From: Methanoregula sp.
Lineage (GTDB): Archaea > Halobacteriota > Methanomicrobia > Methanomicrobiales > Methanospirillaceae
Length of the DNA: 36,353 nucleotides
Reading direction: 5' to 3'
Assembly (NCBI GenBank): GCA_039698055.1
Contig: JBDKTL010000038.1
Span: forward strand, 1 to 36,353
A program made the position numbers and the translations under genes. Below, piece after piece: positions 15,258 through 36,353 of this stretch. Positions within the stretch are counted from its first letter, which is position 1; every line of letters begins with the position of its first letter. Under the pieces are notes generated by a model that did no database searches, had not been told where the DNA came from, and saw only the letters and a list, made by a program, of their open reading frames with translations.

Positions 15258-15275
15258 AGCCGCCGGAGGGAATTG
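15258..15275. repeat. att site (duplicated tRNA-Thr 3' end)
   Basis: AGCCGCCGGAGGGAATTG, identical to 25115-25132. Confidence 0.93.
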
Positions 15276-15538: not shown

Positions 15539-15757
15539 CTAATTCTGTCTGTCTTCTGCAATTATACGGTCTAGGTGTTCCTCAAATATAGAATCTTCAA
15601 TATTGAACATATCAAGTTCTGTCTGTCCTTTTTTCCGTGTGTTGGGAATTTGAGAAAAGATGTTGTATGTCAATTGGCCGAATCGCAGATCCGGTTGGGC
15701 CAGCCAGATTTCTTTTAGCTTTTCTACTATTATTGGAATTCGTGATGGATCGCGCAT
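15539..15757 (-). CDS. Small phage/MGE-type protein (MRDPxRI...W...PDLRxGQL; YihD/DUF1040-like)
   Basis: 72 aa, MRDPSRIPIIVEKLKEIWLAQPDLRFGQL; AGGA upstream of the start. Confidence 0.75.
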   Translation of the reverse strand: MRDPSRIPIIVEKLKEIWLAQPDLRFGQLTYNIFSQIPNTRKKGQTELDMFNIEDSIFEEHLDRIIAEDRQN

Positions 15758-15839
15758 GCATATCCTATAATGTTCGCAGTATTTGTGAATAGCTTCAGTA
15801 CAAAAGCATTAATTATCATTAGATTTCGAAGAATTGTTA

Positions 15840-17156
15840 ATGATCAATTTTCAAGAAACCGTCAAAAATAATCCCATATCGCTTTTTATTTGGGTATTGA
15901 TAGGAATTTTTGTATTCTTAGTAATTTGTATTATCCTTGCCCTCTTCATCAGTTTTAATCCAACAATAAATGTCGTTTCATCTTTTTTCAATACAACGAA
16001 TATTTCGACTACACAGAATTTCTTTAATAATCAAATTAATGTCTCTCAAGATGAAGTAAACACCTCGATAAACAACTCCATTTTGGATAGTACCGGTTTT
16101 AATTTGATCTCGCCTATCATTGCATTATTGGGTTCTTTCGGGGTATTTGCCTATTTGTTTTATTCAATAAAAGAGGGAACGCTCTCAAAAACCGAGAATA
16201 GAAAATTGCTTTATGGTTTTTTGGGTGGAATGGGTATCATAATATTACTTATTGCGATTGTTTTTACATCTTTTTTTCAGGGTAAATACCCCTATGAAAA
16301 ATACATTGAAATCCTTGGTTTGATTGCCCTCTTTTTATTTATGGCAATAATCGCTTATTTTTTCAAGCTCACATTTGATGCAATAGAAGAAAACTATACA
16401 AATCGTCAAGCACTTATCGATTTTTTGGAAATTAAAATTTCAAAGGCGATTATTTGGCAGCCTATTGATAATTTTGCTCGATGTATTGTGGCACTTCAAG
16501 ATTTTTTTTCTTATTTCGTATTCGTATTAATTTGTCTCATACCAATCGTCGGCATTCTATTAGGGTTAAATTTACTGTCGATAATTTTTATCGAGATAAT
16601 GATCTTCACTCTGTTCAGCGGTTTTTGCAGATTGATTAGTTTATGTGAGAATACTTCGAATATAACTCTTAAAAAACGAATTTGTTCAGAACATATTTCT
16701 TTTTCATCTAAACGTTTGTCGAATATTTTCTTTTTACCCTCTCCCGAAGAGGGGTATTTCAAGATTTTAACTAAAAATGGCTATGTTACAATTTTAAAAA
16801 ATGAGATTCTTACTATTCATGATAACGAGGTTATTATTTTCAAAGGAAAAGAAAAGTTACTTCCCCTAAATATCTGGATAAAAAGAAGTGTTCGTTTCGT
16901 TCTATCATTGATCCTTGCAGGATTCCTATATCTACTATTTTTCTTTGGAATTGTTGGGATAGCGATTTTGGTTCGGCCCAACGATTTGCTACAAATTTTA
17001 CAAACGACAATGCCGGGGTTATTGTTAACAATAGAAGGAAACAGTCTGATATTCGCGTTTTGTATTATTGGATGGTTCTGTCAAGAAATCGATGAATATT
17101 TGAAAACTGTAGTTGATCAATTTATGATAGTACCTCATGCACTAGAATTCTATTAG
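15840..17156 (+). CDS. Unknown polytopic membrane protein
   Basis: ~440-aa ORF in AT-rich DNA, ~8-9 hydrophobic segments, Asn/Thr-rich loop after TM1; ATG 15840 (TTG 15834 alternative). Confidence 0.8.
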   Translation: MINFQETVKNNPISLFIWVLIGIFVFLVICIILALFISFNPTINVVSSFFNTTNISTTQNFFNNQINVSQDEVNTSINNSILDSTGFNLISPIIALLGSFGVFAYLFYSIKEGTLSKTENRKLLYGFLGGMGIIILLIAIVFTSFFQGKYPYEKYIEILGLIALFLFMAIIAYFFKLTFDAIEENYTNRQALIDFLEIKISKAIIWQPIDNFARCIVALQDFFSYFVFVLICLIPIVGILLGLNLLSIIFIEIMIFTLFSGFCRLISLCENTSNITLKKRICSEHISFSSKRLSNIFFLPSPEEGYFKILTKNGYVTILKNEILTIHDNEVIIFKGKEKLLPLNIWIKRSVRFVLSLILAGFLYLLFFFGIVGIAILVRPNDLLQILQTTMPGLLLTIEGNSLIFAFCIIGWFCQEIDEYLKTVVDQFMIVPHALEFY

Positions 17157-17260
17157 ATTTCATTTTTAATGGAAATTAATGGAAAAATTAAAACACATGC
17201 TAAATCGTGAAAGGAATAAAAATCGATAGCCATTTCTATTGTATCACTGAACATAATCTA

Positions 17261-20200
17261 ATGGCCGACCACAATCCCCCTTCGAGGGGAGAAAGAAATG
17301 CAATTATTGGCTATAAACCTCAATACGAGATTGCTGCAATAAAAATTATTCATACAATTAGACTTGGGAATCTCGAATCAATACGTATAGCAGATCCTGA
17401 AGCGGGTCGCGTCGATGATTTTCAAATTCTTACACCAAATAGAATTGACGCATTCCAAGTAAAATGGAGTGAACATTCTTCATTAGTGACGTATAACGAT
17501 TTGATTTCTACAGATTCAAAAGGAAACCCCAGCTTACTGTCCCAACTTGCAGATGGATGGAAGCGAATAAGGTCAAATAACCCCGGGAAACGCGTTGTTG
17601 TTCATTTAATAATGCGAGATCATCCCTCTCCCAATACAACGAAGGCAATTCCTGTTGGAGATAAAATTCCTAATCAATATCATTTTGCTGGCTTTATCAG
17701 TCATATTTGGAATAAAGCCCATGCTTCGCTCCCAGGAGAAGTATATCAGATACCCCTTGAATGGGAGCCTGCATGGGATCGATTTAGAGAATCTTCAGGT
17801 TTAACTACTGTCGATGAATTTAATGATTTTGTAAAGGATTGTGAGCTTGAATTTGGATATGAAATTCCGACGTTTGAGGAATTACCAACTAATGATCGAA
17901 ATTTATTGATTGAAGAAAAAAACTACATTTCAAGTAAATTAATTGAAATCGTCGCTGATTCTGGCTCATCAGTTGAGTATACCTTGAAAGAATTTCTTGA
18001 ATATTTAGGATGGACAGAAAGAAACCATCTTGTAAATATTCATGATTTTCCTGTTAATGAAAGAACATATCAACAAATTGAGGGGTTAAATGAGGAGTTC
18101 GAACAGTTAATTAGCACAACTGGAAAAGGATATATTTCAATTATTGGAACGCCAGGATCGGGTAAATCAACCTTTTTAACTCAGACTTTGAAAAACCGGA
18201 ATGAACGTGTTATTAAATATTATTCATTCATTCCAGATTCATTTGAACCGGTAAATCTTCGAGGAGAAGCAAAAAATTTTCTTCATGATATCATATTTCA
18301 ACTTGATCGGTTGGGCTTCTCTTCAGGAGGCAGTATAAGCTCATATGATCGGAACATCTTGCAGAAGAGATTCCACAATCAATTACAACTTCTTCATACC
18401 GCATGGGAAAAAGATCATCGTAAAACTATTTTTTTAATCGATGGGTTGGATCACATTGCGAGAGAACAACATCCCGAATTTTCATTATTAAACGATTTAC
18501 CCAATCCGACAACCATTCCTGACGGTATAATTTTTGTCCTTGGTAGCCAAACCGATGAAATTTTTTTGAGTGCAATTAAATCTGAAGTGCGAAATGGTCG
18601 TAGAATCGAAATGCGGCCATTAAGCCGTCAAGCCGTTCTAGAAATCGTTAACGCAACGAATTTTAAAACGGTTCCAACAAGTGATCAGATCTCTCGTATT
18701 TATACACTCTCTGATGGGCATCCATTAGCGTTAAATTACATCTTAAACAGGATTCATGATGCACAAACAACTGAAGACATTAACACGATTCTGTCTAGCA
18801 CTCAACAATATTCAGGTAATATTGAACAGCAATACCAATCCTATTGGGATGAGGTTAGTGTAAATTCACAACTTTTCGAATTATTCGGCTTAATAGCGAG
18901 ATGCAAATCTGATATTGATATATCTTGGTTTGAAGGATGGTATTCGCAAAAAGCAATATATAACCTTAAGAAAAGTTTCTCTCACTATTTTAAAAGATAT
19001 GATCAGCACGCTTGGTCATTTTTTCATAACAGTTTTCGAATATTCGTTCTCCAAAAAACATGCGATTCCGGACAAGGAGTGATTGATCCATTAAAATCAA
19101 TTCATTATCATCAGATACTTGTTGAACAATCGATAAGACAACCTGATAATCTAATTCATACTTGGGATGAATTTTTCCACCGCTATAACGCAAAACAATA
19201 TCAGGAGATTATTGGTCTGGCAACGCCGGAATATTTTAGAAATCAATTTTTGAACTATCGTTCAATTCCAGATATTAAAAATGATATTAATATTGCATTA
19301 GGTTGTGCAAAGGAATTACAGAATTTTGTAATTCTGTCCCGTTTACTATTAATTGGTACTGAATACGAGTTACGACAAAATTATCTCGATGATATATCCT
19401 ACATCCCACTTTTATTTAGATTATATAAAGATCAAAGAAAACTCTGTCTAAATCATATTCTATTCGGGAATGTTCTTCAAATATCTCAAAATAAAGCATT
19501 ACTATTGTCTAAAAATATTGTAAATATCGTGAAAGATGATGCAAGGCAAATTTTTGATTTGGCTGAACCGGTGGACATTTTAATTGCAAAGGAACTAATC
19601 CAAGATCCTCGAAGATTCGAACCGGAATTATTGCACACCTGGGCCGCTTCAGTTCCATATTTTAGGACTAGTTCCGAAATAATTGACTTGATAAAAAGAT
19701 GTCAACAGAAAAACCCTCATTTGGCACATAAATCATTAAAGGAAGGGAGAGAGGAGTATCAGAAGGAATTGTTGTATCGTGCAGCGATCTCATATATTGA
19801 TCTCGAATGTTGGAATGATGTCAAGGTAATTACCGAAGAAATTTGTAGATATCCTCATTATCCATTAGAATCGGATGAATTCAATTTATATTATTGGTGT
19901 TGGGAACGGTGTGAGCGACTTGATGATGCCCACTATTTCCTTGAGAATGGTAAAAGAATCGTTGGTGATTCATATCTCTCTCCGAAAACTCCGGAATTCA
20001 ATTCAAGACGAATAATTCTTCTTGCAACAGGGATTTTTAATATTGAATCAAATTTGCCATTAGTAAAACAATATTTACAAAATCTTTCATTAAAGAATGT
20101 TGATTTAAAATTTGATACATCTGGATTCTCCAATCCTGAATTGATATTCTTTGAATTTTTCAAATATCTAAAATTAAAATTTTATTTAGGAGACGAATAT

Positions 20201-22018
20201 CAACCGGTTGAGGACATCCCTGAAATCGGAAATGTAAACGATAATCTGCAAATTGAATTCAAGCGAAATGTATACACCCTGGCATACATCTCCGCAATGG
20301 GTGATTTAAATAAAACTTTAAACGATTCCCAGATTGAAACCTTCCTTTCACCTATACTAAAATTATACAATAAAGAATTCCGTGTTTTTCATAACTCTAC
20401 AAATGGTAGTTTAATTCAAAGAGCCAGAGAAGAGTTTTTCAAATTTTTAGTGTATTCTGTTCTTAAACACGGAGATCCTGCGATACGGATTTTATACAAA
20501 CTACTCGATGAAGAATGGAATACGGCAAATAATAAAAGATATTGGTCATCAAAAACTTGGGAAAATTTCATTTTTATCCTGTATAATCGGGGATATGATA
20601 AGAAATGGAGTATTAATAAAATAACAGCCCTTGAAACATCCATATTACTGCGTCCAAATGAATATTATGACACATATCAGAGAGTGCATGAATATTTCGA
20701 TTATGCAAAAACATGGTATCAAGTTAATGATAATAGAAAATCCGATCAATTTCTGAAAAAAGCCATTCAAACTTCTTTTGGTATTGGTTTTCGTAAGGAC
20801 TACCAACTGAATTCTTGGATAAAATGGTTGGAAATTATAAATCGAATTGAACCAGAAAAACGAATTGAAAGAACGGCCTATTTTGTTAAGATTATCTCCG
20901 TAATGCACGAGTATGTTGAAAAACGGGCTGATCTATATGCCGCTGAAGATTTAGTTTCAATTACATTTCCTTGGAGTCCTAAACGAGCTTTAATTCTTAC
21001 ACGTTGGTTCATTGATCGGGAAATATTTTCTGAAACCTTTGGTCGAGAATTGTATTTATCTGAACTTTTACAGAGTGATTGTTCTCTCGATATCGATGAT
21101 GTGATTCCTTTTGTTGATATTATGTTGTTAGGAACGGAGGAAATTGAATCCGTCCATAAACAGATAATTGAACGAATCATTGTCAAATCAAAAAATACTG
21201 GAGAGAAATATTGCATTAAAATTATCAAGCACTTAATTGAATCCGTGAGTCAGAACGGTAATTGGTCTCCAATATCTCAATGGCAGTTGATTATTGCTGA
21301 AAATATTGAAAAAAATGGTTTTAACTCTACTAGATTTGGTTTAGACATCAATGAATTGAAAGAATTAGTCAACTCAAAAAAATCGTCAACATATGATTAT
21401 GATGATAAAATTCCCCAAGAATTACTTCAACGTCCGGTTACACCAGCACTTCTAATCCAGAATCTTCCAGCTATAAAATATCGTCGGAATTGGGAACCCC
21501 TGGTAATTGATGTTATATCTGAATATTCAAAGGAGCAGGTTCAAGAATTACTTGAAGGGATTTCCAACAATTCAGATATATGTATCATATTAAGTCGAAA
21601 ACTGATGGAATTATCTGATGTGAATGGAGCGAAACAAGCAGCGATAAAAGCTATTAAAGAATGCGAATGGGGGGGATATGGTCTTCCGAGTGATTATGGG
21701 GTAAAGGTTGAAGGGATAAAAATATTATTGGAAATAGATAGAGATCTGGCCAAAAAAATTGCATTTGATGTCATTTTTGAAGATTTAACAGTGAAATATC
21801 CTTATTTCTCTACAATAGCCACTCAAATGCACACATTTATTCCTGAAATCATTGATGAGTGTGATGAAATCAAAAAGGTATGGAAGGAAATTCAAGAATA
21901 TCTTGATCAGATTCTTAGTGAGTATACGTTACCCCCCGATTTACCTGAAAAATTGTTAAGTGATACTTCTGACGATACAGTTATTTCTGCATTTGAAGAA
22001 TTTCAAAAAATCTTTTGA
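17261..22018 (+). CDS. Avs/AVAST-like STAND NTPase with N-terminal PD-(D/E)XK (Cap4/Mrr-like) nuclease and long helical C-terminal region
   Basis: GYKPQYEIA helix, VDDFQI...AFQVKWS nuclease motif, Walker A GTPGSGKST, Walker B IFLIDGLD, GHPLAL (GxP), FFHNSFR winged-helix motif; ATG 17261 (track uses GTG 17207). Confidence 0.85.
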   Translation: MADHNPPSRGERNAIIGYKPQYEIAAIKIIHTIRLGNLESIRIADPEAGRVDDFQILTPNRIDAFQVKWSEHSSLVTYNDLISTDSKGNPSLLSQLADGWKRIRSNNPGKRVVVHLIMRDHPSPNTTKAIPVGDKIPNQYHFAGFISHIWNKAHASLPGEVYQIPLEWEPAWDRFRESSGLTTVDEFNDFVKDCELEFGYEIPTFEELPTNDRNLLIEEKNYISSKLIEIVADSGSSVEYTLKEFLEYLGWTERNHLVNIHDFPVNERTYQQIEGLNEEFEQLISTTGKGYISIIGTPGSGKSTFLTQTLKNRNERVIKYYSFIPDSFEPVNLRGEAKNFLHDIIFQLDRLGFSSGGSISSYDRNILQKRFHNQLQLLHTAWEKDHRKTIFLIDGLDHIAREQHPEFSLLNDLPNPTTIPDGIIFVLGSQTDEIFLSAIKSEVRNGRRIEMRPLSRQAVLEIVNATNFKTVPTSDQISRIYTLSDGHPLALNYILNRIHDAQTTEDINTILSSTQQYSGNIEQQYQSYWDEVSVNSQLFELFGLIARCKSDIDISWFEGWYSQKAIYNLKKSFSHYFKRYDQHAWSFFHNSFRIFVLQKTCDSGQGVIDPLKSIHYHQILVEQSIRQPDNLIHTWDEFFHRYNAKQYQEIIGLATPEYFRNQFLNYRSIPDIKNDINIALGCAKELQNFVILSRLLLIGTEYELRQNYLDDISYIPLLFRLYKDQRKLCLNHILFGNVLQISQNKALLLSKNIVNIVKDDARQIFDLAEPVDILIAKELIQDPRRFEPELLHTWAASVPYFRTSSEIIDLIKRCQQKNPHLAHKSLKEGREEYQKELLYRAAISYIDLECWNDVKVITEEICRYPHYPLESDEFNLYYWCWERCERLDDAHYFLENGKRIVGDSYLSPKTPEFNSRRIILLATGIFNIESNLPLVKQYLQNLSLKNVDLKFDTSGFSNPELIFFEFFKYLKLKFYLGDEYQPVEDIPEIGNVNDNLQIEFKRNVYTLAYISAMGDLNKTLNDSQIETFLSPILKLYNKEFRVFHNSTNGSLIQRAREEFFKFLVYSVLKHGDPAIRILYKLLDEEWNTANNKRYWSSKTWENFIFILYNRGYDKKWSINKITALETSILLRPNEYYDTYQRVHEYFDYAKTWYQVNDNRKSDQFLKKAIQTSFGIGFRKDYQLNSWIKWLEIINRIEPEKRIERTAYFVKIISVMHEYVEKRADLYAAEDLVSITFPWSPKRALILTRWFIDREIFSETFGRELYLSELLQSDCSLDIDDVIPFVDIMLLGTEEIESVHKQIIERIIVKSKNTGEKYCIKIIKHLIESVSQNGNWSPISQWQLIIAENIEKNGFNSTRFGLDINELKELVNSKKSSTYDYDDKIPQELLQRPVTPALLIQNLPAIKYRRNWEPLVIDVISEYSKEQVQELLEGISNNSDICIILSRKLMELSDVNGAKQAAIKAIKECEWGGYGLPSDYGVKVEGIKILLEIDRDLAKKIAFDVIFEDLTVKYPYFSTIATQMHTFIPEIIDECDEIKKVWKEIQEYLDQILSEYTLPPDLPEKLLSDTSDDTVISAFEEFQKIF

Positions 22019-22073
22019 TCAAGAACTACCGTTTTTAATGAGTAACCAATCATTGAATAATTTAGTCTAATAT

Positions 22074-22727
22074 TCAGGAGTTCCCCAACCAGATAACCCC
22101 AGTGATATCAGTGTTTTCAATGATATGTTGGGTATTATTGTAGATGTGTCCCTGATCTCCGGTGACGAGATGAACAACCGGAAGTTGAGTCGCTAAGTGA
22201 TGCCCGTCGATGATAATTTCTACATCTGCTGTATCTGGAATATGTTGGCTTAAAAGAGCAAATATCTCATTGTAACTCTTTCGCCGTGAATGTCTTGTTA
22301 TCTTATTGGTATCATTGACCTCAGAATATCGCTGATAACATAACCCTTCAAATCGACGAAAAGCTACCTTCAACTTTTCAATAATCTGGGGATCCCCCCC
22401 GTATTGAGTGAATAATGCCCGAAACAGAGTAGTTGTTTTGAAATCCTGTCGTTGAATTTCTGCTAGAATATCATTCAGGGGTATGTTTTGTTGAATTCGA
22501 TAAATTACCCTGCGCGCCTCAGATGCGATCTTGTTCTTGATGGTTCCACATTTCCCCTCATCAAAACTTCCATCATTGTATTGTGCACCAAAACATTCTT
22601 CCCAGACATATTTACTCGAATGATTTGGAACCGGATCATTAATTCTCGCGGCAGCCCGCTTCCCCCATCGGTCAGCGCCACAGAAAATATAGCCGAGTAT
22701 CACGGAAGAATCATGGAAATAGTTCAT
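22074..22727 (-). CDS. PIN-domain ribonuclease (toxin-like) with long central insertion
   Basis: N-terminal YFHDSSVI, E in 'VWEE', 'DTADVEII', 'LVTGDQGH' acidic tetrad; 217 aa. Confidence 0.75.
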   Translation of the reverse strand: MNYFHDSSVILGYIFCGADRWGKRAAARINDPVPNHSSKYVWEECFGAQYNDGSFDEGKCGTIKNKIASEARRVIYRIQQNIPLNDILAEIQRQDFKTTTLFRALFTQYGGDPQIIEKLKVAFRRFEGLCYQRYSEVNDTNKITRHSRRKSYNEIFALLSQHIPDTADVEIIIDGHHLATQLPVVHLVTGDQGHIYNNTQHIIENTDITGVIWLGNS

Positions 22728-22728
22728 T

Positions 22729-23676
22729 TTATCGTGATGACCTATTGTTCATTGATAACTGGAATGCATAGTCCATGATCTGATCGACAGAATGATCGAT
22801 CTCTTCAGAAACGGAAGAATTTCCGAGATCTTGTAGTAATAAATCATTTCGTGTCTTTTTCAAACTCTTTTCAAATGTGATGAGATCATGTTCATGGAAT
22901 TTTCGTATCCACTCGTCAACTTCGGATTGAGGGATGTTTTCATGTTTATTAATCCGCAAAAGATTGACGAAGAATTCCCAATATTCATTCAGAAGCTTCA
23001 ACGCAACCTTATGATCATATTTCAATGAAAGTTGCATCGTATCTTCCCATTCTAAAAATAAATCGAAAATTTCAGAAAAATCGTTATTGAAATCATTATT
23101 CAAAATTGCAAGGTATTCGCGTATAGATGCAATTTCATTATCCTGGAGATGGAGGGATACTGGAATTTTTTTCCTTACCGGTGTTCTGAACTGTTCGGCG
23201 TACTTCAATAGACCTCTATTAAATGTCCTTTGAAACTCGTATGGGGCTGTTGCATACGCATCATCAAGGATCTGCTGTAAGTATCCTTTAAAGAAAAGCC
23301 CGTTCCCATTTTGATATTTCCTAACCAGAGCATGTATCTCTTCATCAATTGCTGCTCTGATTGAAGCATCGATCTCAATCTGTGGAACTCTGTTCATCGC
23401 TCTGGTCGATCCATCGTGAGTGTAATAATGGCTCAGTGGATTACCCACCATAATTTCGAACGAGCGTTCATCTACAAGACTGCCATAACGATACCAGTAA
23501 TAAGGCAATTGGATATCGATCTCTCGTTCCTTCAAACGAAGGAATAAAAGATAGATCATCTTGTTGAGATGTGTCTTTTTGAAAAAATACTCCCCCCTAG
23601 GATTTGCTACGTTGAGTAGTTTTTCAATACTATATTTCAGAAGGGGATTTTGAACCAAAGGCGAAGCCTCTTTCAT
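22729..23676 (-). CDS. Putative antitoxin with Panacea/SocA(DUF4065)-like N-terminal winged helix
   Basis: 'KTHLNKMIYLL' and 'PYYWYRYGS' resemble the Panacea K-x-x-Y and aromatic-x-x-x-x-YG(P) motifs; stop codon 1 nt before the PIN start. Confidence 0.6.
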   Translation of the reverse strand: MKEASPLVQNPLLKYSIEKLLNVANPRGEYFFKKTHLNKMIYLLFLRLKEREIDIQLPYYWYRYGSLVDERSFEIMVGNPLSHYYTHDGSTRAMNRVPQIEIDASIRAAIDEEIHALVRKYQNGNGLFFKGYLQQILDDAYATAPYEFQRTFNRGLLKYAEQFRTPVRKKIPVSLHLQDNEIASIREYLAILNNDFNNDFSEIFDLFLEWEDTMQLSLKYDHKVALKLLNEYWEFFVNLLRINKHENIPQSEVDEWIRKFHEHDLITFEKSLKKTRNDLLLQDLGNSSVSEEIDHSVDQIMDYAFQLSMNNRSSR

Positions 23677-23735
23677 AGATAATATGAAATTTATTTCTTA
23701 ACTTTTTGTTGGTAGATCTCAATAATCTATTCTTT

Positions 23736-24827
23736 TTATCTCAACAACTCCCTCCCGCACTTCCCGCAATACTTGTATGTCGGCGGATTGATCTCCCCAC
23801 ATGCTTTGCATGTTTTATGAGTAAGTGGTCGTCCCTTTGGCAACGATTTGATCTCGACGCCCTGCATTTTGATCACGATATCGTCAATGTCCTTCGGGGA
23901 TAGATGGGCATAGGTCTGGAACATCTCGGTCTTCAGATTTCCCCACATCATCAGTTTAATGACATCATCTTTGACTCCCCTCTTGACCAGATGGGTTATC
24001 CGCGTGTGCCGAAAAATATGGAGAGTAATCTTTCGTTTGATTCCGGCAATTCTGCCAATGTTCCGGATCTGTCGCAGCATATGATAATGAGATAGAGGAT
24101 TCCCTTCCGGATCCACAAACACATACTTTTCTCCACAATCTTCGCCAGGATAGACACGTTTCCAGGCGAGCAGGTGCTTTTTACTTTTTACGAGCCGGAT
24201 GTACCGCATGACATCGGTCTTCACATCAGTCCGGATCGCCAGGCCGTATTGATCAATGGTGACCTGGTTCCAGGTCAGGGTTCCAATCTCCTTTGCCCTA
24301 AATCCACCTTCGTACAGCATACAGATAATAGCACGGTATAGGGGAGTGCCGGCGTTTTTTACCAAAAGCCGGATCTCCTTCATTGTCAGGATATCACGAT
24401 GAGATTTCGTGACTCTTTTGACTGAAGGCTGCTTGATCTTATTTACTCCCTCCTGGATTATTGTCGGATGGGCAACGTTCTTTTCAATGAGCCACTTGAA
24501 AAAACGCTTGATGAGAAGGATATGATCGTGGAGGGTGTTCTGTTTGTACTTCTCCCCGTTCGGGTTTTTAGCAATCCTAGCAAGGGATATAGCATGAGTC
24601 AGATTTGCGTATGTCGTATTCCGAAACGCCGGCAAAAATTTTCTCCAGAAGACCAAGCCGTAGATCAGCTTATTTCTCCTGCCCAATGAGATGCCCCGGA
24701 GTGCAAACAACTCATCGACAAATTCCAGGATTAATGCAGAGTCTTCATCAGTCAGTTGATTGCGTTCGATTGCTTTTTGGATCGATGCCTCCCCATACTC
24801 ATGCTTGACATAATGAAACTCTGACAT
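23736..24827 (-). CDS. Tyrosine recombinase/integrase with C-terminal zinc ribbon
   Basis: GGFRAKE (R), VKT (K), HIFRH (HxxR), MMWG (W), TYAHL (Y); CKAC...CGKC tail. Confidence 0.95.
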   Translation of the reverse strand: MSEFHYVKHEYGEASIQKAIERNQLTDEDSALILEFVDELFALRGISLGRRNKLIYGLVFWRKFLPAFRNTTYANLTHAISLARIAKNPNGEKYKQNTLHDHILLIKRFFKWLIEKNVAHPTIIQEGVNKIKQPSVKRVTKSHRDILTMKEIRLLVKNAGTPLYRAIICMLYEGGFRAKEIGTLTWNQVTIDQYGLAIRTDVKTDVMRYIRLVKSKKHLLAWKRVYPGEDCGEKYVFVDPEGNPLSHYHMLRQIRNIGRIAGIKRKITLHIFRHTRITHLVKRGVKDDVIKLMMWGNLKTEMFQTYAHLSPKDIDDIVIKMQGVEIKSLPKGRPLTHKTCKACGEINPPTYKYCGKCGRELLR

Positions 24828-29929: not shown

Positions 29930-30000
29930 TGCGACAGCCGGGGATCGAACCCGGGTTAGAAGCTTGGGAAGCTCCTGTCCTACCGCTAGACTACTATCGC
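29930..30000 (-). tRNA. tRNA-Gly(CCC)
   Basis: GCGATAGTAGTCTAGCGGTAGGACAGGAGCTT-CCC-AAGCTTCTAACCCGGGTTCGATCCCCGGCTGTCGCA; 71 nt. Confidence 0.97.
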
Positions 30001-30209
30001 ACCGGTCTTTTCTGCGTTATGATATTACTCCATGTCGAAGATAAATATATCCCGTTTGTTTTCATGGTGCCGGGTCGATATTTTTAAAAATGGCGGTGGT
30101 GCATAGTACCAGTATATCAATGGTGCAAAAGGCCCTGAAAGGAAAAACGATCCGATCTTCGTAATATATCCGTAAAGGGATCCTGCACCATAGAGGGAGT
30201 ATATTCAGT

Positions 30210-31133
30210 ATGAAGTTTTCAAAAATATTGTTAGTCGCTGTTATTGCCGCAGGTATCTTTTTTTGCATCGCACCGGTACTGGCAGATACTGATGCAAACC
30301 AGAAAGTCCTCTACCAGGAAACATTCTCCAAAGATCCCCAATGGCTGACGAATAATCCTTCTTCAGATTACTGGGATCCCAATAAAGGTGCGTACCATTT
30401 TGGCATTGAACCAGCGACTGGCAACTATGCATACATTAAGATACCGGTACCGTATGATGGCGGATCATTTACTCTCCAATACGATCTCATGTTAATGCAG
30501 GTTGATACGGATGCAACATTCAGGCTTGGTTTTTCCGGAACTGAGATGGACCGGTTAAAAGGACCAAACGTCATAACGGAGTTTACCAATGCCAAATATG
30601 GCAACCTCATGTGGGTGAGGGTCGTGACCCAGAATGCAAAACTCAATGAAAAAAGCAGCGCATCATCTTCCTATGGCGGTCCGACGATCAATTACGAACT
30701 GAACACGACCTATCATGTTGTTGTGACCTACGATGACGATGCAAAAACGGTAACAGAACGGGTTTCTGATAAGTTGACCGGGCGGACGATCTGGAGTTAT
30801 TATATCAATACCTGGGACCAGCTGAAAGGGATGAACCGTATTTACCTTGGATCGATTGGCGATTACAGTGTCATGAACAATTATGCTGTCGGGTACATTG
30901 ACAGCGTTGTGCTCACCCAGCCACTGGCAACAACACCAACAGAAACAGCCGCTGTCCAGACCTCGTCGGTTCCCACGTATTCTCTTCGCCCGACCACGCA
31001 GGAAACGACCCGGGTTCCCCTGACATCGATTCCTACGCCGACACAGACCCCGGTACCAGTTTTTATTCCCTGTGCAGCTCTTGCACTTCTCGGGATCGCT
31101 GCCGGTATTCACCGGATGAGAAAGAACCAGTAA
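30210..31133 (+). CDS. Cell-surface protein: signal peptide, beta-rich domain, Thr/Pro linker, C-terminal TM anchor
   Basis: MKFSK, hydrophobic stretch and VLA cleavage motif; TTPTET...TPTQTP linker; TM helix followed by the basic tail RMRKNQ. Confidence 0.85.
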   Translation: MKFSKILLVAVIAAGIFFCIAPVLADTDANQKVLYQETFSKDPQWLTNNPSSDYWDPNKGAYHFGIEPATGNYAYIKIPVPYDGGSFTLQYDLMLMQVDTDATFRLGFSGTEMDRLKGPNVITEFTNAKYGNLMWVRVVTQNAKLNEKSSASSSYGGPTINYELNTTYHVVVTYDDDAKTVTERVSDKLTGRTIWSYYINTWDQLKGMNRIYLGSIGDYSVMNNYAVGYIDSVVLTQPLATTPTETAAVQTSSVPTYSLRPTTQETTRVPLTSIPTPTQTPVPVFIPCAALALLGIAAGIHRMRKNQ

Positions 31134-31572
31134 TGTTCATATAAAAAAAGTTTTTTTTATTTTTTTTGGCTTGTGGTGTATGATTCTGGAGGCGTTTGTG
31201 AATAATAACCGGTGGTAACTGGTCCTTTGTACGATGCACCATAAGGCAGTTACACGGTCAATCCGGCATTTGTCTTTCCCTCGGGTGCAGCGATCAGCGT
31301 GAGGCGGCTGCCCGCTGCATCCATCTTTTTTTGTTAGAGTCCGGAAAAGTGCGGTCCGGATATCCCCGCACGTGCCCTGGTACTTCAGCCTGCTCTCCCT
31401 ATCCAACCATTGAGACAGCCAGGATTCCTGCAGCACCAGCGGCGTGAACGATCGGGACGGCAATGAGGGGAAACATGGTAAACCCCTAAGGATCGTTCCC
31501 CGATCGCCCCTGCGTGCTTTTTTTTTGGATTGGTGACACGATAGATTGGTCCATGCATCACCAAATCTATAT

Positions 31573-31594
31573 TTTATCCCGGATAAGGGATAAA
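31573..31594. promoter_or_regulatory. Inverted repeat, candidate regulator binding site upstream of the wHTH-FHA gene
   Basis: TTTATCCC-N6-GGGATAAA perfect 8-bp arms directly after an AT-rich TATATTT stretch. Confidence 0.3.
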
Positions 31595-31751
31595 TTGCCC
31601 AAATGATCCGGGTTGAAGCATATAACTTCCTGGTTCAATCAATGCATCCCCACTCATAACCCCGGCAAAAATATCGGATGATGTGCTCTTATAGGATAAT
31701 GGGGCATAGGGTTATAGGAAGAAAAACAAAAACGTACCCGACAGGAAGAAT

Positions 31752-32537
31752 ATGAACACTCCGGACCGGTCTCCTACCACGATTTCTGATGAAAACACCG
31801 ATTCACTCGATGAGCTTTCCGAGTATCTCGATGTGCTTTCGAGCAATGCCCGTCTCCGGATTATCAAACTTCTTGAGAAAAAACCGCGTGACGCGAGGGC
31901 AATCTCAAACGAGATCGAGACCAGCTATGAAAATACCAAAAAGCATCTCGATAAACTGCTGGGTATCGGGGTAATTAAAAAAGAAGCGGGTCTTGGTGCA
32001 CCGACATCAAAAGGAATCCATCCCGTCTGGCAATACTCGATTGTGCCAGGAGGTTTTGAGGCAATCATCCGCAATCTCGGCCTTTTTTCCAATGCAAAAG
32101 TCCAGATCGTCGGAGGTGAGATCTCCCGGCGTCTGGATGCCGTGAAAGGAACGCTTTCAAAAGAGGTGCTAGGTGATATGCCGGCGGCGATTGTGCTGGG
32201 TGGTCACGACGATGGGAAAATTTTTCTCTTAAAACATGATCGTGTACGGATTGGCAGGATCGATACCGAGCGCCACGCTCACAGTAATGACGATAAGGAT
32301 GTAGTGCTTGACGGCACGTATACCGCGGTGACCCGGATCTCAAAACCGCATGCGGTGTTTTTGCGTGAAGGTGGCACATGGCATATCGAGGATTGCGGGA
32401 GCACCGGGGGTACCAAGCTGAACAACCAGCAGCTGGAAAATAATGTCCCGGCTTTGGTGCAGGACGGCGATCTTATTGAACTGGCAAAAGGCGTCCCTGG
32501 TGTCAGGCTTCTGATGATCCTGCCAAAAACGGCATGA
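31752..32537 (+). CDS. ArsR-like winged-helix plus FHA-domain transcriptional regulator
   Basis: N-terminal 'LSSNARLRIIKLL...KKHLDKLLGIGVI' wHTH; C-terminal FHA motifs IGR, ISKPHA, STGGT, DGDLIEL. Confidence 0.88.
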   Translation: MNTPDRSPTTISDENTDSLDELSEYLDVLSSNARLRIIKLLEKKPRDARAISNEIETSYENTKKHLDKLLGIGVIKKEAGLGAPTSKGIHPVWQYSIVPGGFEAIIRNLGLFSNAKVQIVGGEISRRLDAVKGTLSKEVLGDMPAAIVLGGHDDGKIFLLKHDRVRIGRIDTERHAHSNDDKDVVLDGTYTAVTRISKPHAVFLREGGTWHIEDCGSTGGTKLNNQQLENNVPALVQDGDLIELAKGVPGVRLLMILPKTA

Positions 32538-32591
32538 ATAGCATCCTTTCAGGAATTACGTGTCTGCACAAAAGAAGAAATAAAAAAAATT

Positions 32592-34694
32592 ATGAATACC
32601 TCTTCCCTCTTACCCTGCTGCAATGATCGCTGCTGGTTACTTACCGGTCTGGTTCTCTGCCTGTTTTTCTTCAGTGTTCCCGGTGTCTGGGCTGCAGAAC
32701 TTTCGGTTGCACCGTCGGGTTCAGAATTTACCCTGATACAGGATGCGATTTCATGGGCATCACCTGGTGACACCATCACGGTGGAAAGCGGTCTGTATCC
32801 CGAAAGCATCCGCATCGACAAAAAAATTTTCCTGACCGGGATTGACAGTGGAGGCGGGGCTCCGGTTATTGATCCCCAGAAAAAAGGTAATGCCATCGAA
32901 ATTCTTGCGGATGGCTGTACCGTGAAAGGATTTACCCTCCAGAACAGCGGTCTCTTCAGCGGTATCCATGTGCTGTCCCGCGATACGACCATTTCCGGCA
33001 ATTTTTTTCAAAATAATGCACAGGGCATCTACCTGGTGTCTGCAGATAATAATACCATCACGGGAAATCGCATCACCGCCAGTACCCGATCCGGGATCAC
33101 CCTTGAATCTTCACAGGATAATATCTTTGAAAATAACCGGATCGCAGATAATTCTGTCGGGATATCGGTTGACGGATCATCGCGTACAAACCACATCTGG
33201 CACAACACGTTTTCAAATTCCCAGAATGTGAATTCCAAAAGTACCTCCCCGTCATGGGTATCGCCTTCTCTGATGAGTTATTCCTATATGGGCAGACAAA
33301 TCCGGAGCCTGATGGGCAATTACTGGAGCGACTATACAGGAAAAGACCGGAATGAAGATGGAATTGGCGACACACCCTATACGATCTTTATTGGGGCGAA
33401 CAAAAACGCCATTCTTCCCATCAACCAGGATGTGTACGATTCCTTCCCGCTGATGGATCCAAATGAATATTACCGTAACCTTACGCCGGTCACCTCGCCT
33501 GCGATGGTGGACACTCCGACACCTGCACCGGTGATACCAGCGATAATCACCCCCACGGTCATCCCGTCAGCCAATGTATCGTCCCCGGTTGATCAGCCTT
33601 CACCAGTTACCCCTGCGGACTCAGCAGTATCCAATCCCCCCTTCAAAGTCCCGTCGGTTATCATTGCAGGTTTCCTCATCCTTGTCGTGGCTGGCATTAC
33701 AGGGATCATCCTGTTGCACGGGCGAAAAAACCGGCGCCGCCCCACGACGTCCGATCCGGTTTCTCATGAGCCCGATGCACAAACGGTCTCAGACTCTGGC
33801 GATACCGCCGATCCGAATACGACCATTGCAGATCCTGTTCTTCCTGACCGTGACGAAACATATGGGTCAGGTCAGGAACTTTATCACTATTTCCCAAAAG
33901 ATCTTGAGAATAAATATACTGATATCCGGTATATCGGGCGGGGCGGTGTAGCGTATGTTTTTTCCGCGACACGAAAAAAAGATCAAAAACGTGTCGCCAT
34001 AAAAATCCCCATCAGTTTTGACGAAGTGACGGGCAAATGTTTCTTAAATGAGATTAATGCATGGGAAACGTTGCGACACCCGAATATCGTTGAAGTGCTG
34101 GGTGTCAACATCCTGCCGGTTCCCTATGTGGAGATGGAATATGTCGCCGGTACGCTTGAAGCGGTCAAAAAACCCCTGCCCGTATGGAAGGCAGTACATC
34201 TGATTTCCGGTGTTGCCGATGGCCTGAAATATGCCCATGCGCACGGATTTATCCACCGGGATATCAAACCGCATAATATTTTAGTGACCGAAAATCTGGT
34301 CCCTAAGATTACTGACTGGGGGATGAGCAAAGTCATCCAGACCGAGATGAAAACCTCAAATGTGGCCGGCTTTTCACTCTCCTATGCAGCTCCTGAACAG
34401 GTCTCGCCCAAGGAATTTGGCAGGACCGATACCCGCACTGACATCTACCAGCTTGGCGTGGTCTTTTATGAGCTGGTCACCGGTTCACTGCCCTTTGGGG
34501 GCGACAGTGTCGTTGAGGTGGGTAATGCCATTGTCCGCGAACCCCCGGTTCCCCCTTCGGAATATACCCCGGAGGCGGTTGCGGTCGAAAAAATTATCCT
34601 GAAATGCCTGGAAAAAGACCCTGCTCAACGGTACCAGTCGGCAGACGAACTGCTCGATGCGTTGTCACGGTATCTGGACGAGGATGCTGAATGA
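32592..34694 (+). CDS. Receptor-like Hanks-type Ser/Thr kinase: signal peptide, NosD/CASH beta-helix, TM helix, kinase
   Basis: IQDAI..A.PGDTI.V..G.Y.E, Asn-ladder repeats, GNYWSDY...DGIGDTPY; TM segment VIIAGFLILVVAGITGIILL-HGRKNRRR; kinase motifs GRGG, VAIK, HRDIKPHN, DWG, APE, DIYQLG. Confidence 0.92.
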   Translation: MNTSSLLPCCNDRCWLLTGLVLCLFFFSVPGVWAAELSVAPSGSEFTLIQDAISWASPGDTITVESGLYPESIRIDKKIFLTGIDSGGGAPVIDPQKKGNAIEILADGCTVKGFTLQNSGLFSGIHVLSRDTTISGNFFQNNAQGIYLVSADNNTITGNRITASTRSGITLESSQDNIFENNRIADNSVGISVDGSSRTNHIWHNTFSNSQNVNSKSTSPSWVSPSLMSYSYMGRQIRSLMGNYWSDYTGKDRNEDGIGDTPYTIFIGANKNAILPINQDVYDSFPLMDPNEYYRNLTPVTSPAMVDTPTPAPVIPAIITPTVIPSANVSSPVDQPSPVTPADSAVSNPPFKVPSVIIAGFLILVVAGITGIILLHGRKNRRRPTTSDPVSHEPDAQTVSDSGDTADPNTTIADPVLPDRDETYGSGQELYHYFPKDLENKYTDIRYIGRGGVAYVFSATRKKDQKRVAIKIPISFDEVTGKCFLNEINAWETLRHPNIVEVLGVNILPVPYVEMEYVAGTLEAVKKPLPVWKAVHLISGVADGLKYAHAHGFIHRDIKPHNILVTENLVPKITDWGMSKVIQTEMKTSNVAGFSLSYAAPEQVSPKEFGRTDTRTDIYQLGVVFYELVTGSLPFGGDSVVEVGNAIVREPPVPPSEYTPEAVAVEKIILKCLEKDPAQRYQSADELLDALSRYLDEDAE

Positions 34695-34707
34695 TAGGGA
34701 GGATGGC

Positions 34708-34899
34708 ATGACTGATGAGGAACCAAAGTATGAACCGGCGACCTGCGGGCATTGCGGGGGGCTTGGATGTACTTATTGCAACAAGACGGGAACGGTTCTT
34801 GTTGCGGCCCCGAAAACATCCTGCCCGGCATGCGATGGTATCGGTTGTATTTACTGTGGGTTTACCGGCTGGACACGCCCGAAAAGCAAGTGTGACTGA
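34708..34899 (+). CDS. Small Cys-rich protein with DnaJ-type CxxCxGxG zinc-finger repeats
   Basis: 63 aa; CGHCGGLGCTYCNKTG and CPACDGIGCIYCGFTG; GGGAGG upstream of ATG 34708. Confidence 0.8.
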   Translation: MTDEEPKYEPATCGHCGGLGCTYCNKTGTVLVAAPKTSCPACDGIGCIYCGFTGWTRPKSKCD

Positions 34900-34947
34900 T
34901 GTAGTACCGGGGCACCCTGCTTGAGCGGGAGTTTCCAATTGTTTTCT

Positions 34948-36153
34948 TTATGGAGGAAACGATCCCTGTATATGTCGCGGGATCACGCATTCTTCGAATT
35001 GTTTGGCAAAATACCGGTCAGTCATCCCGGCAATAAAGTCCCGCACGAGCTCGGCGGGTGTTGCCGACTGGACATAGATCCGGCTGATCCAGTCTGCATC
35101 CATAAAATCGGTAATAATCTTTGAGTGGCGGGTATCATCCTCAATATCATCGAGATAATGGGTAAAGAGTGTCTGGTACATCAGCTCAATTTTCCCCCTC
35201 TCTGCGGTGAGTTTCGGGTTGTCATAGATGCATTGTTTTGAAAATGCCCTGAGTTTGATCAGCATCTGTTCAATATCATGGCTGTAGGAGATGAATCCTT
35301 CATTTTCACTGTCGCTGTTCCCGAGAAGATCATAGATGAGGGTGTTGATGATGACTGCATTGATTGTTTTTGGGTTATTTGTCCCTAAAATCCTGATGCA
35401 CTCCTCCGGGATGGGCGGCGCGTCGTCGATAAGTCCTACTTCGCGTGCGTCCTGCAAATCCCGCCCGATATATGCAATCGTATCAGCAAATTTAACGACA
35501 CATCCTTCAAGTGTCATGGGTGCCCGCGATCGTATGTCCTCCGAATTATCCTGCACTTTCTTGTCAAATGCCAGCCAGTCGGGGCAGGGTTCCGGTGAGA
35601 TACGGACATCGTCTGCTTCACCATTATGGCATAAAATCCCGTCCAGCACCTGCATCGACAGGTCACAGTCTTCAATCTGATCGAGAAAACGCACGCTCTG
35701 GACATTATGAAAAAACCTGCCAATCCCGTACCGTTCGCAGAGCCGGGAAAGACAGGTTTCGCCAAAATGCCCGTAGGGAATGTGGCCGATATCATGGCCA
35801 AGGGCGATAGCTTCGATAAGATCTTCGTTTAACCGCAGGCAGCGCCCGATCGTACGGGCGATCTTTGAGACCAGCTGGACATGGATGACCCGGTGAGTGA
35901 TGTGATCGTTTTCAACGAGATAAAACACCTGTGTCTTATCGATATACCGGGTGTATGCCCGGGTATGGATAATCCGGTCTGCATCGCGGGAGAACGGTGT
36001 CCGGATATCTTCGGGTTTTTTATTATATCGCCGGACTGCATCGGTGCTCGTTGTCGCAAGCGGAGAAAGAAGTGCTTCCCTCCGCGCAGTAACCGTACGA
36101 ATGAACGAACCTGTGTCCGTTGGGATGGAAGGTGTCTGTACAGGGTGATGCAT
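34948..36153 (-). CDS. HD-domain dNTP triphosphohydrolase (dGTPase-like)
   Basis: RTPFSRDADRI, KTQVF, THRVIH, GHDIGHIPYGHFGE, ADTIAY, DFIAGMTDRY. Confidence 0.9.
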   Translation of the reverse strand: MHHPVQTPSIPTDTGSFIRTVTARREALLSPLATTSTDAVRRYNKKPEDIRTPFSRDADRIIHTRAYTRYIDKTQVFYLVENDHITHRVIHVQLVSKIARTIGRCLRLNEDLIEAIALGHDIGHIPYGHFGETCLSRLCERYGIGRFFHNVQSVRFLDQIEDCDLSMQVLDGILCHNGEADDVRISPEPCPDWLAFDKKVQDNSEDIRSRAPMTLEGCVVKFADTIAYIGRDLQDAREVGLIDDAPPIPEECIRILGTNNPKTINAVIINTLIYDLLGNSDSENEGFISYSHDIEQMLIKLRAFSKQCIYDNPKLTAERGKIELMYQTLFTHYLDDIEDDTRHSKIITDFMDADWISRIYVQSATPAELVRDFIAGMTDRYFAKQFEECVIPRHIQGSFPP

Positions 36154-36353
36154 GTATTGGTTTCAGGCTCAATTCTGTTTTTGGCGTTATTAATAGTGAT
36201 GCTTGCGAATTGTGCATGGCAGTTAGGTTGTGGAATCCCGAATTAATTTTACACATATAACCATTTCTTCGCATAATCCAAAATCCTCTCCGGAGGCAAT
36301 TTGTACCAGAAGACGTTACACGGTTCATCCCAGTTGAGACTCATGTGAGGCTT

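Follow-up and report, generated by a model that had tools for sequence, protein, structure and literature searches.

A membrane Ser/Thr kinase and its winged-helix FHA neighbour in Methanoregula as a probable signalling module of the Methanomicrobiales

A stretch of 36,353 nucleotides from Methanoregula sp. (contig JBDKTL010000038.1 of assembly GCA_039698055.1), referred to as a whole as the window, carries two adjacent genes on the plus strand which, judging from sequence comparison, most likely represent one copy of a conserved two-gene Ser/Thr phospho-signalling module, so far encountered almost only in the order Methanomicrobiales. The upstream gene (31752–32537; P0001) is an open reading frame (ORF) for a protein of 261 amino acids that joins a winged helix-turn-helix (wHTH) to a forkhead-associated (FHA) domain, with Pfam matches to HTH_5 and FHA that both exceed their cut-offs. 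The downstream gene (32592–34694; P0002), separated from it by an intergenic gap of 54 bp (32538–32591), is an ORF for a membrane Ser/Thr kinase of 700 amino acids with Pfam matches to Pkinase, NosD and Beta_helix. These matches bear out the domain assignments made for both proteins in the first-pass annotation of this DNA, and the two ORFs have exactly the positions, orientation and spacing that it gives. In line with its remark of knowing no characterised methanogen example, literature searches gave no paper on a wHTH-FHA/kinase pair in methanogens, although supplementary arCOG tables may list the family, and public records give the proteins generic names ('FHA domain-containing protein', 'DNA-binding transcriptional ArsR family regulator', 'protein kinase'). 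The pair probably constitutes an undescribed signalling pathway.

Conservation of the pair, on which the first-pass annotation had staked its reading, is extensive, and the pair is kept in five of the six families of the order. Among 151 genomes of Methanomicrobiales, this one (G000) included, 107 contain a match to the wHTH-FHA protein and 110 a match to the kinase domain. The two genes follow a similar pattern from family to family: 27/29 genomes for the wHTH-FHA protein and 28/29 for the kinase in family f1 (this genome not counted), 16/20 for each in f2, 12/12 for each in f3, 25/30 and 27/30 in f4, and 25/30 for each in f5; family f6 is nearly empty for both, with 1/29 each. A survey of the phylum returned a wHTH-FHA match in 37 of 301 genomes, 36 of them in the six families of the order; outside the order only one of 253 genomes matched, through the HTH only (E 1.4e-6).

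The two genes are not only retained together but also keep their arrangement. Within 6 kb downstream of the wHTH-FHA match there is a co-oriented kinase match for at least 127 of the 150 listed wHTH-FHA matches and in at least 97 of 104 genomes; these figures are lower bounds, being based on listed coordinates, beyond which lie 47 kinase and 13 FHA matches. The median distance from the end of the FHA match to the start of the kinase-domain match is 1053 nt among the matches listed. We also assembled a set of 41 loci, composed of 40 loci from all families (five of them seemingly unpaired) and the second locus of this genome. The kinase gene lies downstream in the same orientation in 39 of the 41; the exceptions are L076, where it is convergent, and L071, which stops at the end of its contig. 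A scan of GTDB species genomes yielded 314 relatives, and the best 80, which we examined, are titled Methanoregula, Methanoregulaceae, Methanolinea or Methanomicrobiales, bar one 4.7-kb contig titled Thermoplasmata. The downstream kinase is present in 77 of these 80 further loci, the other three being cut by contig ends within about 400 nt of the FHA gene. An in-frame TGA is flagged in three genomes of genus g4; in the one examined, G131 (locus L051), where the ORF ends at 3756 and the match at 3759, we read it as a terminal stop.

A search of 1.84 billion representative sequences gave 61 clusters for the wHTH-FHA protein at E 1e-30 or better. Its full-length distant relatives include a 263-residue protein from Methanobrevibacter sp. 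DSM 116169 (P0305) and a 443-residue protein named as belonging to a Bathyarchaeota archaeon (P0266), in which the wHTH-FHA part is fused to DUF4263; a metagenome-assembled genome of Methanospirillaceae is also among the ten named distant relatives. Because the Methanobrevibacter and Bathyarchaeota relatives exist, the family is not strictly confined to Methanomicrobiales.

The wiring of the pair is reflected in the behaviour of its paralogues. There are exactly two FHA-domain matches in this genome, and each is a wHTH-FHA gene immediately followed by the gene of a kinase that has the motif DWG in place of DFG. The regulator of the second pair, on contig C39, is 39% identical to that of the window. 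Many genomes have two to four pairs. Trees were built for 38 pairs, leaving out L046, L070 and L008, where the kinase ORF call is truncated or frameshifted. The regulator and kinase-domain trees display the same major clades, the paralogous pairs of one genome fall in corresponding clades, and the patristic distances of the two trees correlate with r = 0.71, whereas none of 2000 label permutations exceeded 0.28. Because paralogues occupy matching clades in both trees, we take this to show that the pairs, those of this genome included, have been duplicated and retained as units.

The second pair of this genome (C39:19776–21965, equivalent to L008:5776–7965, minus strand) has a kinase whose reading frame switches near the Gly-rich loop, owing to a 1-nt frameshift or to an assembly error. 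The ectodomain of this kinase comprises only about 95 residues; the counterparts of the kinase in two sister species are intact, with 654 and 672 residues. The dependence within the pair is one-sided: the regulator goes with a kinase, and the kinase also occurs alone. Lone DWG kinases (L164–L169, in genomes G076, G006, G138 and G003) measure 471–1114 residues, two of them standing in tandem in G138, and their N-terminal regions are different, longer and apparently cytoplasmic.

What kind of regulator is the wHTH-FHA protein? Its FHA domain is unambiguous in Pfam (E 1e-12; 48.7 bits against a cut-off of 20.7; amino acids 166–244). The N-terminal match to HTH_5/ArsR (E 4e-5; amino acids 33–77) reaches 23.8 bits against a cut-off of 22, and two related models stay below theirs, Pfam HTH_20 at 18.8 against 27 and the ArsR model HTH_metalloreg of NCBIfam at 23.7 against 55. 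The sole cysteine of the protein, C215, sits in the FHA domain. The N-terminal domain is best called an ArsR-like winged helix, as its profile scores suggest, rather than a member of ArsR/SmtB. In a PDB sequence profile search the N-terminal part is matched by the ArsR-family structures 2p4w (E 1.2e-4) and 2oqg.

An AlphaFold2 model built from a 45-sequence alignment (mean predicted local distance difference test score, pLDDT, of 77.7) divides the protein into a disordered tail (amino acids 1–15, pLDDT below 50), a winged helix (16–97; 31797–32042), two linker helices (101–140) and an FHA sandwich (145–256; 32184–32519). The winged helix, made up of helices at 16–72 and wing strands at 75–97, is modelled at pLDDT 85–92; the sandwich has values of 79–93 across most of amino acids 141–250, falling to 64 at 171–180. 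The delimitation of the winged helix draws on HTH_5 and the PDB profile matches besides the model, and that of the FHA domain on Pfam, conserved residues and the fold match. The best PDB matches of the model in Foldseek are the FHA domains of GarA and OdhI, with TM-scores to the target of 0.74–0.88 (ranks 1–5, 7 and 8). The similarity is one of fold and not of sequence membership, as the OdhI model NF041660 gives 24 bits against a cut-off of 200; the best FHA match in NCBIfam is FhaB/FipA, at 33 bits against 125. EmbR (2fez) aligns over the FHA part alone (E 0.0016 in the PDB profile search; rank 39 in Foldseek), and Pfam has no match to BTAD or Trans_reg_C in the protein, which places it outside the EmbR/SARP-FHA family.

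FHA domains bind phosphothreonine, and the residues that contact it can be followed through the family. The motifs read from the sequence are IGR, SKPH and STGGT, as the first-pass annotation had noted when it described the retained G-R and S-x-x-H and the replaced Asn. Across the 45 aligned sequences G168 and R169 never vary, and at least 90% of them have H200; Ser198 and the Thr of the S-T-G-G loop are found in 70–90% of 42 sequences. At the place of the canonical Asn-Gly stand G219 and G220, in at least 90% of the 45, and STGGT aligns with STNGT of Rad53 FHA1 in a profile alignment, so that the canonical Asn is Gly. As an FHA domain, the family has the profile score, the 11-strand beta-sandwich fold and the phosphate-contacting Gly-Arg, Ser-x-x-His and Thr in place, and it lacks the Asn that contacts the peptide backbone. 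In the winged helix S58, Y59, N61, K63, K64, H65 and W93 are invariant (n = 45).

The disordered tail contains one further invariant residue. Thr9 (codon 31776–31778) is present in all 45 aligned members, in a tail that otherwise varies in length and sequence; it is followed by I, L or V at +1 in 42/45, mostly by V or I at +2, by I, L or V at +3 in 32/45, and then by acidic residues. GarA and OdhI have a self-binding switch operated by their own FHA domain, and many FHA domains favour a hydrophobic residue at +3. We propose Thr9 as a candidate phospho-acceptor and phosphothreonine ligand because a conserved Thr in a disordered tail before the FHA domain is the arrangement of GarA/OdhI, and because of the hydrophobic +3 position.

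The kinase protein contains a strong Pkinase match (PF00069; E 7.7e-43; 147.2 bits against a cut-off of 31.7; amino acids 442–687), a NosD domain (E 2e-28; 99.7 bits against 23.6; amino acids 107–250) and a Beta_helix match (E 2.4e-16). Its topology, which we read from Kyte-Doolittle windows and Pfam only, agrees with that given in the first-pass annotation. Two hydrophobic segments flank the beta-helix, and RKNRRR comes after the second of them. The protein begins with an N-terminal hydrophobic segment, a signal peptide or first membrane anchor (amino acids 1–34; 32592–32693), whose Kyte-Doolittle peak falls at 14–32 and whose end reads VWA/AE. The predicted extracytoplasmic right-handed beta-helix of NosD/CASH type follows (35–295; 32694–33476), then a stalk rich in Pro, Thr, Ser and Val (296–352; 33477–33647), with 14 Pro, 8 Val, 7 Thr and 7 Ser among 57 residues, and a transmembrane (TM) helix (353–377; 33648–33722) with a Kyte-Doolittle value of 2.92 at 356–374. 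The net charge is +4 over the 15 residues after this helix. The juxtamembrane segment (378–441; 33723–33914), cytoplasmic in this topology, is by composition rich in Thr and Asp, amino acids 378–432 having 8 Asp and 7 Thr in 55 residues. Directly before the kinase domain stands an F-P-x-x-L-x-x-x-Y motif, of which P435, L438 and Y442 are invariant and F434 is conserved in at least 90%. The beta-helix is predicted to lie outside and the kinase inside, whether or not the first segment is cleaved. The closest solved sequence to the beta-helix is NosD 7o0y (E 1.2e-9). An identification of the ectodomain as a NosD orthologue was rejected, as TIGR04247 gives 132 bits against a cut-off of 300 and the beta-helix repeat domain alone is shared; a glycan ligand is a possibility suggested by the NosD/CASH-type similarity.

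The Hanks-type kinase domain (442–687; 33915–34652), delimited by the Pkinase match, has the motifs VAIK, HRDIKPHN, DWG and APE, and HRDIKPHN is a catalytic loop of Ser/Thr type. Its closest solved relative is Mycobacterium tuberculosis PknB (E 2.3e-37), in which VVDFGIA aligns with ITDWGMS. In an alignment of 36 sequences K471 (VAIK), E487, D557 and N562 (HRDxKxxN), D575-W576-G577, P601-E602 (APE) and R680 are invariant, and these catalytic residues align with those of PknB. The replacement of DFG by DWG (575–577; 34314–34322), pointed out in the first-pass annotation, extends to the whole family, with D, W and G each found in 41/41 kinase domains from loci across the order. The domain has the profile score and catalytic residues of a Hanks kinase and departs from it in the DFG Phe. 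We read DWG as a family signature, not as decay or the mark of a dead kinase, because it is invariant and the metal-binding Asp and the Gly are kept; the phrase 'DWG motif' occurs in none of the papers that a literature search listed. Ser or Thr occupies position 589 of the activation loop in 35/41 and position 590 in 25/41 sequences; the two align near the TQT of PknB, which we take to be its phosphorylated sites. The model PknB_PASTA (NF033483) matches the kinase domain alone, with 226 bits where the cut-off is 450, and Pfam finds no PASTA repeats in the protein.

The kinase domain is C-terminal in all fetched loci; the N-terminal part varies. We observe five formats: NosD beta-helix with one TM helix, as in this window; NosD with three to five more hydrophobic segments; PEGA domains, which are common in surface-layer proteins, with several TM helices; a short loop of about 60–100 residues between two TM helices; and a polytopic form without recognisable domain. 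The single-TM beta-helix receptor described in the first-pass annotation is therefore accurate for this protein, but this eukaryote-like format is one among several in the family. What stays the same throughout is a DWG kinase domain at the C-terminus and a wHTH-FHA gene upstream. Clustering of all ORFs in the 41 loci likewise shows that the pair genes are the only ones common to all families.

Two kinds of gene recur beside the pair in part of the order. A PP2C phosphatase gene co-oriented with the pair is found in 9/41 loci; in eight it abuts the pair directly, and in the ninth it is about 5 kb off. Among the eight, it immediately precedes the wHTH-FHA gene in L058–L061, L063 and L077, and immediately follows that gene in L052 and the kinase gene in L050. 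Such adjacency is how a real Ser/Thr phospho-signalling module should be expected to look. The sole PP2C match of this genome is away from the pair, on contig C37. The second kind, a MacB/FtsX-type ABC transporter (ATPase and permease, with a secreted protein before them), occurs in 7/41 loci. In six of them the operon is co-oriented with the pair and adjoins it, 32–78 nt upstream in L055, L056, L071 and L073 and after the kinase in L063 and L077.

The PP2C gene of this genome belongs to a one-strand array on C37 (L083:1544–5362, minus strand) encoding a vWA-like protein of 229 residues, the PP2C of 306, a third, more distant kinase of 453 and a HEAT-repeat protein of 283. The combination of vWA protein, kinase and phosphatase recalls the context of Sulfolobus ArnB.

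Transcriptional evidence for the pair is limited to metatranscriptome contigs. Runs X7 and X8, which share their study with the probable source sample, include contigs that match parts of both genes perfectly. One of these, a 304-nt contig of X7, spans 32411–32713 without mismatch, bridging the gap. This is a weak hint that the two genes are co-transcribed, given that the data are contigs and that DNA carry-over is possible; stretches without contig cover, e.g. 34018–34731, are uninformative on expression, as is run X19, which is probably DNA.

The first-pass annotation had further proposed as an operator an inverted repeat upstream of the pair, TTTATCCC-N6-GGGATAAA (31573–31594). The repeat is present and its 8-bp arms are perfect; the operator role, however, is unsupported, as the repeat neither exceeds chance nor is conserved. 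When the 618-bp intergenic region was resampled 500 times under a first-order Markov model, 22% of the resamples contained at least one such repeat; the left arm is not conserved in seven orthologous upstream regions of the genus, and the portion that is conserved there, GATAAAT only, looks TATA-like. Blocks conserved in the genus upstream of the pair fall at 31452–31565. They include GGTGA-N(21–24)-TCACC (31535–31565, at about −210 to −223), present in six of eight genus regions (the window and seven others) and, on a wider count, in 8/42 upstream regions including the window, compared with 17/840 control windows. At most it is an element of this genus, perhaps part of a divergent small gene. 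The orthologues have the apparent start of a divergent small ORF there (reverse complement ATGGACACCGG...), which appears disrupted in the window. Over the 42 upstream regions, k-mer enrichment brought out only TATA-like AT-rich words and genus-specific blocks, and Rfam gave no match in 30000–36353 at E up to 0.1.

How could the two proteins work together? In the mechanism that we propose, every step of which is inferred, a signal at the ectodomain would activate the kinase, which would autophosphorylate at the activation-loop Ser/Thr (589/590), the Thr-rich juxtamembrane segment, or both. The FHA domain would dock onto a phosphothreonine of the kinase, and the kinase would phosphorylate its wHTH-FHA partner, most likely at the invariant Thr9. 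An FHA domain, either its own or that of the other subunit of a dimer, would then read phospho-Thr9 in the manner of GarA/OdhI, and this reading would alter what the winged helix binds, presumably DNA. A PP2C phosphatase, encoded beside the pair in other species and elsewhere in this genome, would reset the system. We hold a functional phospho-dependent link between the two proteins to be highly probable, and the whole chain, a dedicated kinase-to-FHA-regulator pathway with PP2C reset, to be on balance the probable one. Two of its parts command less confidence: the transcriptional output, suggested by the marginal ArsR-type HTH match, and the role of Thr9 as a kinase target subsequently read by the FHA domain, suggested by analogy.

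A bolder version of this proposal, which we put forward only tentatively, is that Methanomicrobiales run a parallel 'two-component-like' signalling wholly on Ser/Thr chemistry, in which sensor-swapping DWG kinases would each have their own wHTH-FHA 'response regulator' and PP2C would provide the reset. Thr9 would here act like the receiver Asp, and the Asn-less FHA domain would turn phosphorylation into a change in DNA binding; each genome would have one to four such pairs, some coupled to MacB-type transporters in a Bce-like manner.

Several observations weigh against a dedicated pathway from kinase to transcription. Shared species history accounts for part of the congruence between the trees. 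DWG kinases stand without a wHTH-FHA neighbour at six informative loci, and G076, a genome from the same genus, encodes four of them but lacks the wHTH-FHA gene altogether; since family kinases occur without this neighbour, they must have other substrates too. The family-wide Gly-for-Asn exchange may make peptide recognition by the FHA domain atypical, and the tail motif around Thr9, a Thr followed by three hydrophobic residues, may form a strand of the structure instead of serving as a phosphosite. As for DNA binding, the HTH score is marginal; hardly any variation is seen in the recognition helix, even between paralogues, which is unusual for regulators with distinct regulons; and a k-mer search, itself crude, found no operator conserved across the order upstream of the genes.

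The last three points would suit an unlikely alternative, in which the wHTH-FHA protein is a kinase-bound adaptor or regulator of the FhaA or FhaB/FipA kind, not a transcription factor, and the output is post-translational. The FHA domain would tether it to the phosphorylated kinase, and the winged helix would contact proteins or recruit substrates, e.g. of the envelope, a transporter or cell division. A recognition helix and wing that are near-invariant in orthologues and paralogues fit one common partner better than many operators; the best NCBIfam FHA match is indeed FhaB/FipA, though at a score far below its cut-off; and the MacB/FtsX-type ABC operon abutting the pair on the same strand in 6/41 loci could be a post-translational target, for which PknF and the FHA-bearing transporter Rv1747 offer a parallel. 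Nevertheless, the winged-helix fold is modelled confidently, with the basic conserved K63, K64 and H65 on the predicted recognition helix, and its nearest solved sequence relatives are DNA-binding ArsR-family regulators. A near-invariant helix is also expected if all copies autoregulate via a similar site that a crude k-mer search would miss. We regard DNA as the presumable target of the winged helix in the proposed pathway, at the reduced confidence given above.

A second alternative concerns the input. The ectodomain might respond not to an external ligand but to the cell's own envelope, such as S-layer or sheath glycans or a partner transporter, while the rest of the chain stays as proposed. 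The module would then sense envelope stress or flux, in a manner comparable to that of PASTA kinases or Bce-type transporter-coupled systems. The free exchange of the sensor part among NosD beta-helix, PEGA, short loops and polytopic forms is compatible with this, as are the arrays with the MacB/FtsX-type ABC transporter and its secreted accessory protein in the six loci named above and the gene directly upstream in the window, which encodes a secreted, C-terminally anchored surface protein of 307 residues conserved in the genus. However, no transporter adjoins the pair in this window, the ABC linkage extends to only 7/41 loci, and NosD/CASH similarity is silent on whether a glycan is self or foreign; we consider this alternative improbable.

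A role of the pair in anti-virus defence or abortive infection, as a module built on a Ser/Thr kinase in the way of PD-T4-6 or of the BREX/MADS kinase components, is very improbable. In its favour, the kinase domain does match PD-T4-6 (E 1.2e-61) and mad6 (E 2.4e-58) of PADLOC as well as MAD6 and PglW of NCBIfam, the HTH resembles Csa3/CARF-associated HTHs (E 1.8e-6), the Bathyarchaeota-named relative P0266 is fused to DUF4263, which we take to be the Shedu nuclease domain, and some 7 kb upstream of the pair the window has a mobile island in which an integrase and a STAND NTPase are encoded. On the other side, the PADLOC and NCBIfam matches span the generic kinase domain only (amino acids 430–698), with MAD6 at 130 against a cut-off of 460 and PglW at 60 against 990, no other defence component is adjacent to the pair, its linkage is to PP2C and transporters and not to nucleases, it resides in conserved, core-like genus synteny (62–69/80 loci), and it is conserved vertically over five families with trees that follow taxa, unlike patchy defence islands.

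The immediate surroundings of the pair are stable within Methanoregula, where the order is fixed as an ACT-domain protein, the 307-residue surface protein, the pair, a Cys-rich ORF of 63 residues and an HD hydrolase; this genus-level order is seen in 62–69 of the 80 close loci. The surface protein gene (30210–31133, plus strand), conserved upstream of the pair in 62/80, encodes a protein with a signal-like segment at its N-terminus, a linker rich in Thr and Pro, and a hydrophobic anchor at its C-terminus, after which comes RMRKNQ; the protein has no match in Pfam, NCBIfam or PADLOC. The Cys-rich ORF (34708–34899, plus strand) begins 13 nt after the kinase stop and contains two CxxCxGxGCxxC motifs resembling the zinc finger of DnaJ; tblastn finds it in 69/80 close loci, and it has no Pfam or PADLOC match. 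As a putative zinc-ribbon protein it was considered for a third component of the module and rejected, being present in only 8/41 loci (the window and seven of genera g1 and g3); it is a genus-level neighbour and not part of the core module. Further upstream, a low-GC stretch (15001–24827; 31–40%, where the surroundings have about 55%) has a phage-type integrase gene at its end (23736–24827, minus strand) and contains an ORF of 1603 residues (17207–22018, plus strand) with AAA_22/NPHP3_N matches, a STAND-like NTPase, together with several ORFs without Pfam match. The stretch is probably an integrated mobile island, and possibly defence-related.

The pair amounts to a compact order-wide module that comes down to a kinase domain, a 261-residue partner, one invariant Thr and two FHA residues. 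If our reading is true, it would be the first kinase-to-regulator pathway in methanogens, and a natural one-to-one wired Ser/Thr system with exchangeable sensors, and it would provide structural work with two variants, an FHA domain lacking the canonical Asn and a DWG kinase. The pathway would further hint at environmental sensing by Methanoregula and its relatives, which are important methane producers in peat, sludge and groundwater. In the portion available to us, a 2016 review (PMC5007285) mentions one study only of Ser/Thr/Tyr phosphorylation in methanogens, on Methanosarcina barkeri, and reports nothing on the function of Hanks-type kinases in them. The parts that we could access of PMC4858521 and of a bioRxiv preprint on ESCRT (10.1101/2024.02.06.579148) deal with other archaeal FHA/kinase contexts and not with the methanogen pair.

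The only archaeal FHA regulators known to have been characterised are the zinc-finger-FHA proteins ArnA and ST0829 of Sulfolobales, with their kinases ArnC and ST1565. The same review describes the ST1565-ST0829 and ArnA/B/C/D systems of Sulfolobus (PMC5007285). As described in the accessible parts of three sources, the two regulators are phosphorylated by Hanks kinases and bind or control archaellum gene promoters (PMC5007285, PMC10470591, PMC12852372). ArnA differs from the methanogen regulator in having a zinc finger instead of a winged helix, in working with the vWA protein ArnB, in having a kinase that is not adjacent, and in belonging to another phylum. In ST0829 of Sulfolobus tokodaii the FHA Asn, N200, is needed for partner binding, according to the same available part of the review (PMC5007285); the corresponding residue is Gly in the methanogen family.

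Among the bacterial systems, mycobacterial PknB-GarA and corynebacterial PknG-OdhI are close in structure, PknB being the nearest solved kinase and GarA/OdhI heading the Foldseek matches of the FHA domain; as in those two proteins, the FHA domain of the methanogen partner is preceded by a disordered tail that has a conserved Thr. GarA and OdhI, however, are without a DNA-binding domain and regulate metabolic enzymes, whereas the methanogen partner carries a winged helix; their kinases either have an N-terminal catalytic domain or are soluble, whereas the methanogen kinase domain is C-terminal and of the DWG type, and the Asn of the partner FHA domain is Gly. PknH-EmbR of M. tuberculosis resembles the pair in combining a membrane Ser/Thr kinase with a transcription-factor-like protein whose FHA domain reads the phosphothreonine of the kinase. 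EmbR, however, is a SARP with an OmpR-type winged helix, a BTAD and a C-terminal FHA domain, while the methanogen regulator consists of an ArsR-type winged helix, a two-helix linker and FHA, without BTAD; PknH has an N-terminal kinase domain, and the archaeal pair, unlike PknH-EmbR, is strictly adjacent, order-wide and operon-like. The PASTA kinases PknB, PrkC and StkP share with the methanogen kinase the plan of a single-pass Hanks kinase with an extracytoplasmic sensor and a disordered juxtamembrane segment, but their kinase domain is N-terminal and their sensor C-terminal; the methanogen protein has the opposite polarity and no PASTA repeats.

In its wiring the pair is reminiscent of two-component systems, including those of the Bce type, in which a modular membrane sensor kinase with exchangeable input domains is likewise wired one-to-one to an adjacent partner of DNA-binding type and duplicated with it as a unit, and some of the pairs, as in Bce-type systems, share one array with a MacB/FtsX-type ABC transporter. 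The chemistry differs, for the methanogen pair has neither histidine kinase nor receiver, and Ser/Thr phosphorylation would be read by the FHA domain instead. The pair is best placed with kinase/FHA-regulator signalling of the known type represented by PknH-EmbR, PknB-GarA and ArnC-ArnA, within which it has constant features of its own: a DWG kinase domain at the C-terminus, an FHA domain that lacks the Asn, an ArsR-like winged helix, two strictly adjacent genes and exchangeable sensors.

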